From positions 3,472,001-3,536,000 of the forward strand of contig JAYWIR010000001.1 of the NCBI GenBank assembly GCA_036172245.1: a DNA stretch of 64,000 nucleotides, in the 5' to 3' direction. Of the stretch, positions 1-24,262 are shown one piece after another (positions within the stretch are counted from its first letter, which is position 1; each line of letters opens with the position of its first letter). This DNA comes from Raillietiella orientalis. Taxonomy: Eukaryota. The notes beneath the pieces were generated by a model that saw only the letters and a program-made list of their open reading frames with translations, had not been told where the DNA came from and did no database searches. A program made the position numbers and the translations under genes.

Positions 1-2579
<2,579 letters not shown>

Positions 2580-2598
2580 TAGCCAGGAAGCCAACGTA

Positions 2599-2655
2599 CA
2601 ATACTATGTATTGATACATTCATTTCTATGAAATATAAAGTAGGCCTATGGCACT
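2599..2655 (+). promoter_or_regulatory. Three tandem 3'UTR stem-loops with C(UAU)G triloops (CDE-like Roquin/Regnase elements)
   Basis: CAATAC-TAT-GTATTG (2599-2613), ATTTC-TAT-GAAAT (2622-2634, contains the CDE consensus UUCYRYGAA) and GCC-TAT-GGC (2644-2652, extendable by AGT/ACT). They start 20 nt after the ZC3H12 stop. Confidence 0.65.
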
Positions 2656-2661
2656 TATCAA

Positions 2662-4749
2662 TCATTGATCTGTGCTTGTTTTTTTGGACTGTAGGGAAGC
2701 TAAATTATCAGAAGAAAAGTGCTGCCATTCTACTTGAGTTGGTAATAATCCAATAGGTACTTCCTCCCACCTAACTTGAGCTATACTTAATACTATTACT
2801 TCCCATCCATATAGTACATGATGTTCACCTTTGCTCTTTTCCCATGGACCAGAAGTAACACTTGAAACCTGATCACCTATAATGTCCTCCAGTGAATATA
2901 CTCGCGAATCCACAGTCCCTGTAGCATCCACATTCACTTGGTCCAGTGGAGTACAAAAAACCGCCACTGTACTCTTAAGTAACTGCAGCTTTTTAGGAGA
3001 AAGTGATGGTTGCATAGCATCCAAGAACCTAATAAGAGAAAAGGTTGCAATGTATCAGCTGAAAAACAATACATTACTTCTTTAACAACTGAACCGTGAA
3101 ACTCGTTGGTTGTTGTACGATGCTGCACAGCAAAGGCTGACATTCGGGTCTCCAGGCAGAATATCTGTTCTGCTTCCATAAGCTGAGAATAGCTGAGATC
3201 CAGCTGCACTTAAGCCACAATAAAAACCTTCCTTTATCATCCTAAAAATTCTCACAAGTCTCACAATCTGAGTTAAGCAACTAGTTTACTGTAAGATTAG
3301 TTGCAAAGACTTCTAATAATTTCAACAAGCCTGTTTCTGGAAGCAATAACAAAACAGGATTCCAAACTTTTAATAATCTGGTAGGCAGAGACAAACAAGA
3401 CATATCTTCAAAAGACATACTGCTTCTAAAGGAAAACATCAGACTCACCGAAATTTTTGACAGAATGTTCCAAGTTCTGTCGTGAAGGCAACATGTGCTT
3501 ATGCATGTATGTGATCACAAGTTTTTCATCTGTTTGCAGATACACCTTTAGTTTCTCTAACTCCTCATTGGCTTTCTCTGGAGCCTCTTTTTTGAAAACA
3601 ATCCTTGTTCGTACATTTACAAAGTCATCAAGAAATTGCTCCACTGTTTTCTTTTTTCGATGTGATGCTTTCATTTTTTTGGCCTGATGTTTAGATAAAT
3701 CAGTAACATGAGATCTTAGCTGCTCCATATTTTGTAACTGCAACTCCCAGTAGTGCTTCTGGGATGCATTTAATTTTTTGCAACTTGTAATTCTTTTATA
3801 CCTTCAAATACTCCAGGGCCAACTTAGTTCCCTGACGCAACAATGTCAAACTTGGTAAAACAGCATGAGCAGCTTCATGTCGCAGTTCCACAATCCACGC
3901 AGGAATACTGAGTTTCTCAGCTACTTTGTGGACTGGAATCTGACACATGGCAACCTGACCCAAATCTGTGATGAAATTCACAAATCTGGAAAGCGATTGT
4001 TTCGAATCAAATATTACACAACCAAACATTTGGGCTTTGGTAACTTTGGTGCCTCAAACAAGCATTTCACACATAATCATAGTTAAAAAAACTTTTAAAA
4101 TACTATCAATACTTATGTTAAACTAATATGTTTCTTAAGGTTTTGGTGTTTCTTATGTGTAAGCATCTACATGCAATTTAACTTGGAGCACTAAAGATTA
4201 TGAAAGCTGAGGTATATATTCTAAAGTTTAAACTCACCTAATTATTGCCATGGCGTGATTAAACTGGATGCTTCTAATAAGAAATGGATCAATTCTTGAA
4301 AGATTAACAAAAACTTCATCATCGTGTATCAGTGCCTGAAGAAGATCTGTTGTTACTTCTATTCCAGCTGATATACGATATTCCCTTTGAATAGAATTCT
4401 ATAACGAATAATTATATGCTAACCAACCTTGCTTTCCACATCTGAACCTTAGCAATACCCCATAACTGGTCTTCAACACGTTCACTGTACAAACTCTCAT
4501 AGACCTGTTTCCATTCTTCTCTAAAAAAAAAGCAATTACTCAATTTAATAATCTAACTTTATGAGATCATTACGTTGAAGATGTCATACACGCACAGCCT
4601 TGCAATATGAAAACACGGAAACATTTCAAGAGATCTGTTCTACTACGCAATCGCAAAACATACTTTCAGAAAGCTTAATAAATTAATTACTTTCAAAGAC
4701 ATACGTACTCAGAAAACCAGGGAACGGCCCTTTTTTTTATTTCTGGCAT
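2662..4749 (-). CDS. LAS1L: Ribosome biogenesis endoribonuclease Las1/LAS1L (HEPN domain)
   Basis: Eight minus-strand exons: 4749-4709, 4520-4428, 4384-4238, 3985-3802, 3758-3449, 3405-3290, 3241-3078 and 3028-2662, all GT-AG and phase-compatible. The protein reads MPEIKKRAVPWFSEEEWKQVY...WKAR...AMAIIRFVN...IPAWIVELRHEAAHAVLPSL (HEPN RxxxxH)...YW...LPTRLLKVWNPVL...WEEVPIGLLP, as expected for Las1. Confidence 0.93.
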
Positions 4750-6885
4750 CGATGACACCAACTTTCGGTCTTAATGTTAAATTCCACAGACGCTACCAGC
4801 TTACCGTTGGAAATCTATCATATAATTAACATTTGAAATGATTTCAAGAAATGTTCATGATATTTATTCCTATAACAATATTAGGGCCATACACAAAGGT
4901 ATCATATGCATTATTAGGAAAACACATGCTGTCCATTAGATTCCGGCATGCAAATTACTTGGAGAACCAGGCTTTCCATTTTTGCCTGGTTTCCCTAAAA
5001 TAAGACTTCAAATTGTAGAGCAAGCACTATTAAAAATATAATTTTAATGCTTTTTGGTAAAATTAGAGTAAAGTCATGCATTTAAAGTGATGAACTAACA
5101 AATTTTATCAATATAAAAAATGCAAGCTAAATTTATAATGCCATGAACTTTATGTGGTTGACTAAGCACAAAACTACAAGAAAATTAAATATCTTGTAAT
5201 TCGAAGTTTCTCAGATAATAAACTCAAAATTCTGACATGGAAATGAGAAAAAAAAGACGATGAAATTCTTATGAAAATCATTGTACGAAATTTAATAATT
5301 ATTTAGGAAACAGCGTTCTTAATATAAATCAAAGAGTTAATTTTAAACAAATGATTTCTCAACTCAAGATTTGTTCATTACTTTGACTGTAGCATCTTTA
5401 CTATTTTAGAGTATCCTTAAAAAATAAGATAGTAAATGCTATCTAAACATCAGTATAACCACTGATTTCTGGCACGTCTTACTGCTATCCATTGCAAAGC
5501 TGCTTACTTTCCATTATTTATGCACCCACTTACATTTCTGAGTCGAAACTGGAGAAAACTAAAGATATATGTTAGCTGCTTTCTGGATCAGCTTGCTCAT
5601 CGAAAAGTTGTGCATTTTATGAAAAGAATTTAAGCAGTGAACGATTACATAAACATAAATTAATCATAGTTTCCAATCATTCTTATTCATACACAAAGGC
5701 ATTGGCATCTAAATCGTTATTATTTTTCTCCCTTTAATTATTTCGAGTTTCATATTAACGAAAACTAATTTGAAAATTCAGGTTTACTTCATTCAATGTC
5801 TCAATTCAAATTCAATTTACTTCAACTGACAGTACTTAATTCGATTGACGATTTATTTTTTTCTGGTTTTGATGAATGCAAAAAAACACAAAGATTAGTT
5901 TTGCAGCTTTATCAGTTTGTGTTACAAGATGAACCTCAGATGATAAAATCATATAAGTTCTGCATCATTGGCAATTATGTTTTCTTAAGATATAAATGCA
6001 AGCACAGAAGCTTCCTTTTTAATTATATTTCACTATTTTACTATTTTCGTGCGTTTGGTTTTACATAATCAAAATTTGAAAATAAATGTTTGTTTTGTTT
6101 TCTTAACTCTTATATTTACTTGCTCACTGTATTTATTATTAATGTCTACCTGCCCTATAAAATAATCAAGGTGTCCGCTAAAGTTTCAGGATTTGTGGCG
6201 TGTCCCGTCACAGGAAGAGTTTGGATGACGCTGCCTTGGATACTTTATTCAATGACACTGTTTGATTCACCGATGGGAGGAAGCCATGTCCGGAGTCATT
6301 TAATTATTATAATGGTTACTCATACATTGGTGCATTGAGCCGAAATAGCAGAAAAGTATGTAATGAAAATGTAATCAATTTAAGCCATGGGAAGTTCAGA
6401 ACATAATTAAATTTTCTAGTCATTTATTTTTTATGTTATTCACAAAGATGGGAGGTGATACAAGAGAAGAATAAATGAACACTTTGAAGCTGCTACGCTT
6501 CTCACAGCAGTCTATTCCCTTATGTGTATTTATCTATTTAAACCGCACATGTATAAGCAATGCAGTTTCTAATAAACATTTCATCAAAGCTCAATTCATT
6601 TAAATGCCAATCGAAAGTTCTAAGGAAATTCTACCAAGCTCGTAGAAAAACGGTAAGTTTGAGACAAGAAGGATTTCTAATTTTCTGGTGGATTTGGCGG
6701 TTGAAATGAGGATTACCTGCTGCAAGGTTTCAACCTGCCCCTTATTCCCTTGTTTCCTATATTCAGATTTACTTCCTCACCGTTCCAATCGCTTCATCAG
6801 TCATTCTCATTCTCTCTCTGCATTCTTCATTTATTTATTGAGTTATCGTTGCTTTGCCTCTGACACCTACCGTGATCCCCTGTAG

Positions 6886-22200: not shown

Positions 22201-24262
22201 TCTCTACGCCTCTGAACACAGCGCGGCCCCTCGCAGTCGTTTCCCAATCCATCTTATGATCAAATATCTTCTGAGCGAAGTCAAGCTAAAGCACCATCCC
22301 CTTATTCGTTACCAGCACTTGAAGCTCTCCATAGCATTCCTGGGAAACAGCGAGAATGTGATCGTGGTGGTCTCTGTCCAGACTTTGTTTTAAAATTATC
22401 TTCCCGCCATTTTTGTGTGAATGTGATTTACCTACACATCCACATCTTTATTGCCAATCTTTCCTCACTTCCTGATATGAATCAGCGGCGAGGGTTAGTT
22501 TATGTCATTAATCACTTCGTAGGATTTTCTACATTCCCAGATTTCAAGTTCAGCACCGTTGGAGTTCTTTCCAAAGTGCGATGCGAACTTTTCCAAAGTT
22601 CCTTTGCTTTAGACAGGGCTGCTTTACAGAACAGAGATTTCTGAAGTTCACTTTATCTTTTATATCAATTTAGAAAGATGAGACAGATTTGGTGAGAAGG
22701 AATCAGTTTTAGGTGAGCTTGATCCAGGGCTGATTTATCTCCCCTGATCATATGACCTTTTGAATTGACGCTTCTTTCATACAAACGCTTTTGAAACTGA
22801 TGGGGAACATCTGTTTCAAACAGGAAGTATTCTCTTCGTGTCAGACGTGTAATATGTGTCATGTTCAGTGTGGCCAAGCCATCTTCTAAGCCATATTCGT
22901 GGGGTCATTCCAGAACTCAAAAGCATCTGTACCTATTGCTCAGTATGCACCCAACCTTAGCACATTCGAAATCGCGTTTCTTCTTTGCTGCCTCATCGTC
23001 CTGAAATAGTTTGGATGATGCCAAAGGAACCGAAGAATTCTTAGAGGTGGTCTTAGACGACTTTCGAAAATGCCCAGCGTGTTTCCTCTTGAAAACCATC
23101 GAGAGAAACTGCATCTCTGAGATTGGACTCACTACACCGCACGCATTCAGCGAAACGACCGTGTGCAAATATGAGTGAACATCCTTTCTCGATTCACTCC
23201 GTCTCTGTGTGTTTCTGATGTACGATGCGGTATACTTCCAAACGCATCTCCCTCCTACTTACGATGCACGCTCAGAATACTACTTGATCCGAACTGGAAA
23301 TATCTTTTGTGGAATAGGATTGAATCGTCCATATTTCGCAATTAACATTTCCAAACCATCATGCCAATATGCCAAAACTTGCATGCGTACATTCAGGTTT
23401 TCAAAACTCGTATGTGGGAATTTTTTATGAGTGTTTGATGCTCATTTCAGGGACACTCATTATTAAATGAATTTCTTGAAATCAAATGGATTGCGCATTC
23501 TTAGTTGAGCCTAAAAGCTCCCGAATGTGTACTTTCAGAATCCATTGCAGCTATCTGGCAGACAAGCACGTGCTTATGATGGAGGAAAATTTATTCAGAC
23601 GCTGTAGTTTAACGCTTCTTGATTTTACTGGGAACCGCCTAACGGACAGCAGCATCCATGTTTTTGCTTCGTGCCTCTCTCGAACAGACTGCAGACTACA
23701 AGTTCTCATCTTATCTAATAACGAAATCAAGGGCAGAGGAATTTGCACTTTGGCAGAAGCGCTGAAAACCAATAGCTCCTTGAAAAAACTCGACTTGAGT
23801 CTGAACAACTTGGACGATGAGGCGGTTGAGGAGCTCTGCAAAGGTCTCTCGCAAAACTCGTTCCTGCAATTCCTAGACATCAGCGCCAATGCTTTCGGCG
23901 TGGAAGGGGCCATGTCCCTTAGTAGCGTACTCAAGTCCGGAAAGAGCTCACTGTGCACTTTAGACATCAGCTGCAACGACATAACCAAGGTAACTCGACA
24001 GCACTCTGCAGCAGTTTCGCACTGCTCTACGTTTGTTCCAAAGGCAGGGGGAAAAGCCTTCCATCTGGCCCTCCTCGACAACCATACTCTCATCACCCTC
24101 GACCTGCGTTTGACCAACTGTGGGACGGATGCACTCTACACTATTACGAGCTGCCTGAAAAGAAACAGAAGATCTTTGGAGAAAGAGTTTTACTGGCGCC
24201 TGGGAGACGAGGTTCCGTCAATTGCAAGACAGATGGTTTGCATGCAACTATCCATTCTTTAA
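16229..24262 (+). CDS. TCTE1: Dynein regulatory complex subunit 5 / T-complex-associated testis-expressed 1 (LRR protein)
   Basis: Exons 16229-16412, 16461-16603, 17486-17752, 17802-17932, 23539-23989 and 24044-24262 (the last few codons are uncertain; a 24236-24274 intron leading to TGA is possible). The spliced protein RTLVAENPDW..IPDLSELC...IPLPLAVQLIDKDAYW...RWP|..HGNSYKRMYMEKYL..FKPG..LPLC...VFGAKHMGTRFTWN, then RI-type LRRs ending ISCNDITKAGGK...DNHTLITLDLRLT, parallels TCTE1/DRC5. A 5'UTR intron at 16136-16199 is likely, with an in-frame TAG upstream of the ATG. Confidence 0.88.
16700..17400 (+). mobile_element. Decayed LTR-retrotransposon pol fragment in TCTE1 intron 2
   Basis: EFDFLGL (like vxFLGh) followed by THLTDAC...ILG (like the RNase H lxTDAS..G motif); heavily disrupted. 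Confidence 0.3.

Follow-up and report, generated by a model that had tools for sequence, protein, structure and literature searches.

In the window (the whole 64,000-nt stretch of DNA analysed here), the 82 nt that separate the stop codons of a Regnase/ZC3H12 gene and a convergent Las1 gene contain three hairpins with a common C-UAU-G apex, and the first of them, hairpin 1, has counterparts downstream of the Regnase stop codon in four distant relatives. On balance, we consider it probable that the Regnase 3'UTR is very short and that these 82 nt make up the greater part of it, if not the whole; it would carry a cluster of Roquin/Regnase-type (CDE-like) triloop hairpins with hairpin 1 as its core. 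By analogy with mammals, hairpin 1 is best read as an orthologous-in-function Roquin/Regnase response element on Regnase mRNA, and hairpins 3 and 2 would be lineage-specific extra copies of the C-UAU-G apex.

The window opens inside the Regnase/ZC3H12 gene, which lies on the plus strand and whose open reading frame terminates with TAA at 2577-2579. An exon at 1253..1489 (+) encodes most of the NYN ribonuclease domain (Pfam PF11977, RNase_Zc3h12a, E 2.4e-32), sharing 71-85% identity with relatives in tblastn alignments. The CCCH zinc finger region is located on an exon at 1531..1796 (+), whose boundaries are AG/GT sites read by eye; it shares 52-73% identity with relatives (tblastn) and matched no Pfam family at E 0.01. 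The last exon (1858..2579, +) comprises a Regnase_1_C domain (PF18561, E 2.6e-4) and the stop codon. This domain match near the stop is weak, with 21.1 bits versus a curated Pfam cut-off of 25.7. The alignment of the C-terminus with 19 relatives runs through to their ends, indicating that TAA 2577-2579 is the true Regnase stop. The closest proteins to the last-exon product are 33-40% identical over most of their length, and a protein atlas returned one Regnase_1_C cluster with a score of 0.80 and without a useful taxon.

The convergent Las1 gene runs on the minus strand; its last coding stretch, an open reading frame at 2662..3054, ends with TGA at 2664-2662, and the Las1 domain is found further upstream at 3796-4053 (-) (PF04031, E 1.2e-20). 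The gap between the two stop codons is therefore 2580-2661, 82 nt in length. When positions 1-6000 were searched against Rfam at E <= 1, no match was found within 2580-2661. A PK-repZ match at 2953-3088 (21.6 bits versus a gathering score of 44, E 0.2) was taken as chance.

The initial annotation described three hairpins with a common C-UAU-G apex between the two stop codons, and direct reading together with a scan located all three. Hairpin 1 (2596..2617, +) reads GUACAAUAC-UAU-GUAUUG[A]UAC, with 9 bp and a bulged A, and includes a 6-bp core, CAATAC-TAT-GTATTG, at 2599-2613; it is the conserved stem-loop of the three. Hairpin 2 (2622..2634, +) reads AUUUC-UAU-GAAAU, with 5 bp, and contains the CDE core UUCUAUGAA (DNA TTCTATGAA) at 2624-2632. 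Hairpin 3 (2638..2656, +) reads AAGU[AG]GCC-UAU-GGCACUU, with 7 bp and a 2-nt bulge around a 3-bp core, GCC-UAU-GGC, at 2644-2652. Since their stems bear no sequence relationship, the three hairpins are not duplicates of one unit, and a common origin by duplication was rejected. Read on the minus strand, the loops are AUA, as had been pointed out.

The hairpin cluster is non-random. When the 82 nt were dinucleotide-shuffled 20,000 times, three hairpins with the same closing pair and loop never occurred, and two occurred in 144 shuffles; two YRY-triloop hairpins of at least 5 bp were present in only 2. In the window itself (128 kb over both strands), the gap holds the sole such triple and the sole such pair. 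C-TAT-G hairpins with at least 3 bp number 10 on the plus strand of the 64 kb (3 in the gap and 7 elsewhere) and 4 on the minus strand.

The three hairpins differ markedly in their predicted folding. RNAfold gave -18.1 kcal/mol for the plus strand of the 82 nt (z -2.43; 5 of 200 shuffles were equally stable) and -19.5 kcal/mol for the minus strand (z -1.79), where the triloop form of hairpin 2 had a probability of about 0.5. In the fold of the full 82 nt (+), hairpin 1 was kept, hairpin 2 was refolded as UUCAU-UUCU-AUGAA and hairpin 3 was absent. The extended form of hairpin 1 (2596-2617, 9 bp with the bulged A) had an energy of -5.6 kcal/mol (z -2.89), and its pair probability was 0.87-0.98 in most contexts and 0.44 in one. 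For hairpin 2, the triloop form reached a probability of 0.03-0.04 in all plus-strand contexts tried and +0.6 kcal/mol when folded alone, whereas the rival tetraloop fold UUCAU-UUCU-AUGAA at 2619-2632 had a probability of about 0.8-0.9. According to these predictions, hairpin 2 would need protein binding to quit its preferred tetraloop fold. Hairpin 2 had been stressed as an exact CDE; this emphasis did not hold, since the hairpin is predicted to be mostly a tetraloop and is not conserved in relatives (see below), and the weight moves to hairpin 1. Hairpin 3, in the form AAGU[AG]GCC-UAU-GGCACUU, had a probability of 0.96 only when 2580-2592, the first 13 nt after the stop codon, were omitted; in other contexts its probability was 0-0.5, the hairpin being outcompeted by long-range pairing. 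A terminating ribosome, given the size of its footprint, would cover 2580-2592.

As to the 3' end of the Regnase transcript, neither AAUAAA nor AUUAAA is present on either strand of the 82-nt gap, and the next AAUAAA on the plus strand is at 3219. Two hexamers resembling poly(A) signals, AAUAUA (2632) and the overlapping UAUAAA (2634), constitute a candidate signal at 2632..2639 (+), between hairpins 2 and 3. Moreover, a U/GU-rich run, UGUGCUUGUUUUUUUGG, lies at 2671..2687 (+) and may represent the downstream element of a poly(A) site. Judging from these motifs, a cleavage site near 2650-2667 would fit; the 3'UTR would then measure about 75-90 nt and include all three hairpins. We consider a 3'UTR ending before 2596 (under 17 nt) unlikely. 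We infer that the Regnase transcript spans the hairpins. Pfam searches of 42 long open reading frames elsewhere in the window, run to calibrate poly(A)-signal use, returned a match for one LRR open reading frame only.

To place the element in a comparative frame, metagenome contigs were scanned with protein alignment, yielding 19 loci that encode an orthologous C-terminus, and the stop codon was located in each. The last Regnase exon of the window is 33-53% identical to the nearest relatives found, and no Regnase relatives were found in the genome-contig and viral-contig collections. Las1 was found near Regnase in none of the 19 loci, indicating that the convergent Regnase/Las1 arrangement is particular to the window. 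In addition, TTCYRYGAA was absent within 300 nt of the stop codon in all 19 loci, and no counterparts of hairpin 2 or hairpin 3 were found in the relatives.

For hairpin 1, extending the search to 1,500 nt past the stop codon revealed counterparts with a UGU loop in four distant relatives, the loci L015, L017, L018 and L019, always on the Regnase strand. The counterpart in L017 starts at +432 after the stop and reads CTACAATAC-TGT-GTATTGTGG, and the same sequence is found at +1170 in L018; that in L015 lies at +358 (CTACGATAC-TGT-GTATCGTGG) and that in L019 at +1134 (TTCAATAC-TGT-GTATTGAG). Hairpin 1 of the window starts +17 nt after the stop. In pairwise blastn comparisons, the hairpin 1 block was the best or only match in 3' flanks that could not otherwise be aligned (L015-L017, 24 nt at 92%, E 6e-5; L017-L019, 15 nt at 100%; L017-window, 17 nt at 94%). 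All copies adopt a triloop hairpin at minimum free energy, and the stems of the relatives have 8-9 bp. Conservation in the relatives holds for hairpin 1 but not for hairpin 2, hairpin 3 or the array of three.

The helix was further analyzed in an alignment of five sequences (the window, L015, L017, L018 and L019) by nine pairs, that is 45 cells, in which L017 and L018 are close kin. Pairing is maintained in 91.1% of the cells, a level reached in 1 of 500 shuffles, and slid controls gave 27-60%. Compensatory changes are present in two of the nine pairs, A-U to G-C in L015 and A-U to U-A in L019. The covariation score of the nine-pair helix was matched by 39 of 500 shuffles; covariation is modest because there are five sequences, two of them close kin. 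Furthermore, a U.G wobble occurs in four of the five sequences, and on the opposite strand it would give a C.A mismatch; the wobble pairs on the Regnase sense strand only, in support of this strand for hairpin 1.

A covariance model run over the window and the 19 loci (143,475 nt) recovered only the five training sites, the next best match having an E of 1.2. In a tree of the last-exon protein, the best-supported split (96/96) groups the window with L014, L015, L017, L018 and L019, a tree that serves as a guide only because its branches are long. Hairpin 1 is present in all five clade members with 3' sequence and in none of the nine other rows, and L014 offers just 6 nt after the stop. From this comparison, hairpin 1 is best read as an old element that Regnase mRNAs of this animal lineage have conserved, with the apex AC-URU-GU and a stem of 8-9 bp.

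Hairpins with YRY triloops were also counted in the 3' flanks of the relatives. In a test fixed before the longer flanks were seen, YRY hairpins were not enriched within 150 or 300 nt past the stop in 11 non-redundant relatives (for example, 2 observed versus 2.03 expected, a count equalled or exceeded in 302 of 500 shuffles). A larger sample comprised 9,164 nt after the stop codons of 10 non-redundant relatives, and the 1,500-nt range and longer-stem thresholds used for it were picked after the hairpin list had been seen. In this sample, YRY-triloop hairpins with a stem of at least 7 bp number 10 on the sense strand, nine of them with a UGU or UAU loop, versus 0 on the opposite strand; shuffles contained a mean of 1.55, and none of 300 reached 10. 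The same flanks contain five hairpins with any of the other 56 loops. Upstream, three YRY hairpins were found in 13,202 nt, and as a baseline the window as a whole (128 kb) contains 11 YRY-triloop hairpins with stems of at least 7 bp. The enrichment persists without L018 and at every stem length from 5 to 9 bp, whether G.U pairs are allowed or not. Other lineages carry different hairpins, also long and with URU loops, for example at +739 in L012 (10 bp, C-UAU-G) and at +297 in L007 (UGU), and a termite-like group has long UGU-loop hairpins near +1280 to +1334. Together, the U.G wobble and the bias of 10 versus 0 in the relatives support the earlier proposal that the signal acts on the Regnase strand only. 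They also bear, with the conservation and covariation of hairpin 1, on the broader proposal of an autoregulatory or Roquin-responsive array: a structured, strand-specific RNA element of the Regnase transcript is upheld, and its conservation as an array is not.

Based on the mammalian system, we hypothesize the following mechanism. A putative Roquin orthologue of the animal would bind the triloop hairpins through its ROQ domain and would recruit deadenylation factors, Regnase itself, or both. In this way, Regnase mRNA would be kept low by its own pathway, constituting a negative feedback. Both the binding partner and the effect on mRNA stability are deduced by analogy.

Other explanations of the cluster have to be weighed against this feedback element. 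A serious one, to which we give somewhat less than an even chance, is that only hairpin 1 is functional and that hairpins 2 and 3 are fortuitous palindromes that form no array; the same mechanism would be possible for hairpin 1. Hairpin 1 is indeed the sole conserved hairpin, the triloop of hairpin 2 is rarely formed in the predictions (0.03-0.04) and hairpin 3 is built on a core of just 3 bp. Against this view, three same-apex hairpins with unrelated stems arose in 0 of 20,000 shuffles, and just seven C-TAT-G hairpins of at least 3 bp lie outside the cluster on the plus strand of 64 kb. Mammalian ROQ does not bind tetraloops, the preferred fold of hairpin 2, according to the available part of PMC11609897; on the other hand, multi-hairpin Roquin elements are known from UCP3 (PMC11609897) and Nfkbid (PMC6145892), as far as the available parts of these papers go, and more than one YRY hairpin is found in each of L017, L018, L019 and L002. 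It is very improbable that the whole cluster is a product of chance, in which AT-rich sequence would have given three small functionless palindromes. Shuffle and in-window statistics and, above all, the conservation of hairpin 1 in independent lineages argue against it, although the feature was chosen after the whole window had been read and its components are common, with 1,089 triloop hairpins of 3 bp per strand in 64 kb and seven copies of the 9-mer CDE core on the plus strand and three on the minus strand of the window. For hairpin 1 itself, a chance origin is very unlikely.

The conservation of hairpin 1 indicates constraint and does not name a binding partner, and the hairpin might be read by another factor or process, such as localisation, translational control or 3' end formation. 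We regard this as fairly unlikely. The loop is always URU, and nine of the ten long hairpins have UGU or UAU loops, matching the preference of Roquin and Regnase-1 (PMC11609897, PMC8241994, in their available parts), even though hairpin 1 is without the CDE core UCYRYGA; moreover, targeting by Roquin/Regnase-1 is documented for the orthologue in mammals (available part of PMC8894612). A role in 3' end formation would find some support in AAUAUA/UAUAAA at 2632-2639 between hairpins 2 and 3, followed by the U/GU-rich run at 2671-2687, and in L017, where an AATAAA ends right at the foot of the hairpin; however, the position of the poly(A)-like signal is not conserved, and none is found just before the hairpin in L015 and L018. 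It is highly improbable that the palindromes serve the convergent gene pair as a shared terminator, a Las1 3'UTR element with AUA loops or a site of transcript overlap. Las1 is absent from all 19 related loci, four of which nevertheless have hairpin 1 on the Regnase strand, and an element belonging to the Regnase/Las1 pair was rejected on this ground. The proximity of the stop codons (82 nt), the lack of AAUAAA/AUUAAA on both strands of the gap, and the folding of the minus strand (-19.5 kcal/mol, z -1.79), with hairpin 2 as a triloop at about 0.5, would be in line with such a role, but the U.G wobble and the 10-to-0 strand bias favour the Regnase sense strand, and the hairpins are weak (-2 to -6 kcal/mol), thus making a poor terminator.

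A CDE-like hairpin conserved past the stop codon of invertebrate Regnase genes would, if true, date the feedback loop before the vertebrates, and the conservation of hairpin 1 in distant relatives suggests that Regnase self-control is much older than vertebrates. A more far-reaching scenario, which we offer tentatively and hold to be doubtful, is that Roquin-Regnase feedback on Regnase mRNA is ancient, that the AC-URU-GU stem-loop persisted in invertebrates and may be homologous to that of mammalian Zc3h12a, and that in this species squeezing of the gene against the convergent Las1 shrank the 3'UTR to about 80 nt, consisting of almost only three such hairpins. In that case, the window would provide a natural 'minimal' Roquin/Regnase response element that starts where the terminating ribosome sits. 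Regnase-1 and Roquin are central brakes on mammalian inflammation, and the repression of the Regnase-1 mRNA itself via 3'UTR stem-loops is already a target of antisense oligonucleotides (available part of PMC13732794). The window element is compact, with three hairpins in about 60 nt, which suits binding and reporter studies; if the reading is true, natural variants of the element are also available, including UGU versus UAU loops and compensatory stem changes.

Autoregulation of Regnase-1 mRNA via CDE-like stem-loops is known already in mammals. For such an element in an invertebrate Regnase mRNA, no report was found among the best literature matches, by motif search or in Rfam, in a coverage that leaves most subscription-journal papers outside and hence gives no proof of absence. 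With the hairpin motif as the query, the literature search, again over a coverage without most subscription journals, returned unrelated papers only.

The consensus of the CDE is UUCYRYGAA. Its loop rule, Y-R-U (Y-R-Y), is followed by all three hairpins of the window (UAU) and by the counterparts in L015, L017, L018 and L019 (UGU). In the available part of PMC11609897, ROQ binds YRU triloops on 6-8 bp stems and rejects tetra- and pentaloops, CUGUG being among the best apexes; UAU loops on 5-9 bp stems are preferred by Regnase-1, whose own mRNA is degraded via a 3'UTR stem-loop (available part of PMC8241994). Hairpin 1, with 6 bp plus 3 bp past the bulge, fits the stem lengths of both proteins. 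Hairpin 2 has 5 bp, with a triloop probability of 0.03-0.04, and hairpin 3 has 3 bp plus 4 bp past the bulge, in some contexts only. The CDE core, given as UCYRYGA in the available part of a review (PMC13732794), is matched by hairpin 2 only, hairpin 1 reading ACUAUGU and hairpin 3 CCUAUGG. Stem composition has a minor influence on ROQ binding in what is available of PMC11609897, and therefore the missing core lowers membership in the narrow consensus, not the functional analogy. As for the closing pair, the same source gives a ROQ preference for Y-R with a middle G and for R-Y with a middle A, a modest one, with 25.2 versus 17.3 for the two UGU forms. The C-UGU-G of the relatives is the preferred form, and the C-UAU-G of the window is in the less favoured direction for mammalian ROQ (PMC11609897, available part).

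Outside vertebrates, Roquin and Regnase cooperate in C. elegans via neighbouring 3'UTR stem-loops on ets-4 (available part of PMC9371910). This system resembles the window in that RLE-1/Roquin and REGE-1/Regnase read adjacent hairpins, the ADE and the RCE, in a 3'UTR of a non-vertebrate. Different from the window, its target is the mRNA of a transcription factor and its Roquin site, the ADE, has a hexaloop, not a triloop (PMC9371910, same part). The feedback on rege-1 in this worm is transcriptional, through ETS-4 (same part of PMC9371910), indicating that a Regnase 3'UTR feedback loop is not universal.

Clusters of weak hairpins acting together are described for Nfkbid, a multi-hairpin Roquin element with six stem-loops (PMC6145892), and for the tandem stem-loops of Nfkbiz (PMC13732794), both in the available parts of these papers. 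Like these, the window has several weak stem-loops clustered in a short stretch; unlike it, the Nfkbid and Nfkbiz elements belong to other genes, are larger and have been validated experimentally, whereas in the window comparative support exists for one of three hairpins. With the CDEs of TNF and UCP3, the window shares a YRU triloop on a short stem, its UAU loop being that of UCP3 and the C-UGU-G of its relatives that of TNF (available parts of PMC11609897 and PMC13732794). UCP3 carries tandem UAU CDEs, an arrangement also similar to that of the window (PMC11609897, as available). The differences from the CDE are that hairpins 1 and 3 miss the core in the upper stem, that the C-G closing pair of the window is combined with a middle A, and that hairpin 2 with 5 bp and the core of hairpin 3 with 3 bp fall short of the preferred 6-8 bp in that source.

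The closest comparison is with the stem-loops of mammalian Zc3h12a. Mouse Regnase-1 mRNA has two autoregulatory stem-loops, SL1 and SL2 (available part of PMC13732794). A CDE-like stem-loop of mouse Zc3h12a (nt 194-212) is repressive and is bound by Roquin-1, which Regnase-1 joins; of the targets, Zc3h12a is one of those repressed most cooperatively (available part of PMC8894612). Different from these, the element of the window belongs to an invertebrate gene and starts at +17 nt in a 3'UTR of maybe only about 80 nt; moreover, the mouse stem-loop has 5 bp with a 5-nt loop (available part of PMC8241994) and that of the window 8-9 bp with a triloop. In both cases, the gene is of the same family (NYN, CCCH and Regnase_1_C), and small CDE-like hairpins, more than one of them, follow the stop codon on the sense strand (for the mammalian stem-loops, PMC13732794, as available). 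Hairpin 1, conserved past the Regnase/ZC3H12 stop in 5 of 5 assessable members of one clade, shares this placement with the autoregulatory stem-loops of mammalian Zc3h12a.

In the window, the Regnase gene on the forward strand was assigned three very short introns of about 41–61 nt (114–156, 1490–1530 and 1797–1857) and a longer one of roughly 950 nt (about 299–1252), with all splice sites placed by eye from the sequence. The intron at 1797–1857 separates the zinc-finger exon from the last exon in the window; in several relatives these two exons form a single open frame. Both Regnase and the convergent Las1 gene lie within the first 10 kb, where the G+C content is about 31–42%; it rises to 58–66% around 42–60 kb, and long open frames are numerous in this G+C-rich part. 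Among the 42 long open frames outside the Regnase/Las1 pair that were tested in the 10–60 kb region, just one had a Pfam match, a 260-aa forward-strand frame at 23480–24259 containing leucine-rich repeats (LRR_6, E = 1e-15; LRR_1, E = 4.5e-9).

On the minus strand of the window, two candidate weak poly(A) signals were found, AAUGAA at 2624 and AAUACA at 2612. If weak signals within the intergenic gap were used by both genes, the Regnase and Las1 transcripts would overlap across the hairpins (2596–2656), and the two RNAs could pair with each other over this segment.

Eight of the metagenome loci encoding an orthologous Regnase C-terminus (L001–L006, L013 and L016) share a hairpin, TTTCTCA-TGCTG-TGAGGAA, directly 3' of the Regnase stop codon (~18–40 nt). 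Its loop can be read either as 5 nt or as a GCU triloop with a U·G closing pair, and it fell outside what the scans for Y-R-Y triloop hairpins scored. These eight loci are near-identical, too similar for covariation of this hairpin to be assessed.

Additional triloop hairpins were found in two of the loci that carry the conserved hairpin. Locus L018 contains, besides the conserved hairpin, a CDE-like one of 9 bp, GATGATGTC-TGT-GACATTGTT, at 424–444, 98–118 nt after the stop codon. Its apex, UCUGUGA, fits the core of the Roquin constitutive decay element (CDE), and its fold is no better than those of shuffled sequences (z = -1.26). In locus L019, the conserved hairpin is directly followed, at a distance of about 15 nt, by a 6-bp hairpin, ATAGCT-CAT-AGCTAT (5340–5354), and the two form tandem YRU triloops, similar to the arrangement in the window.
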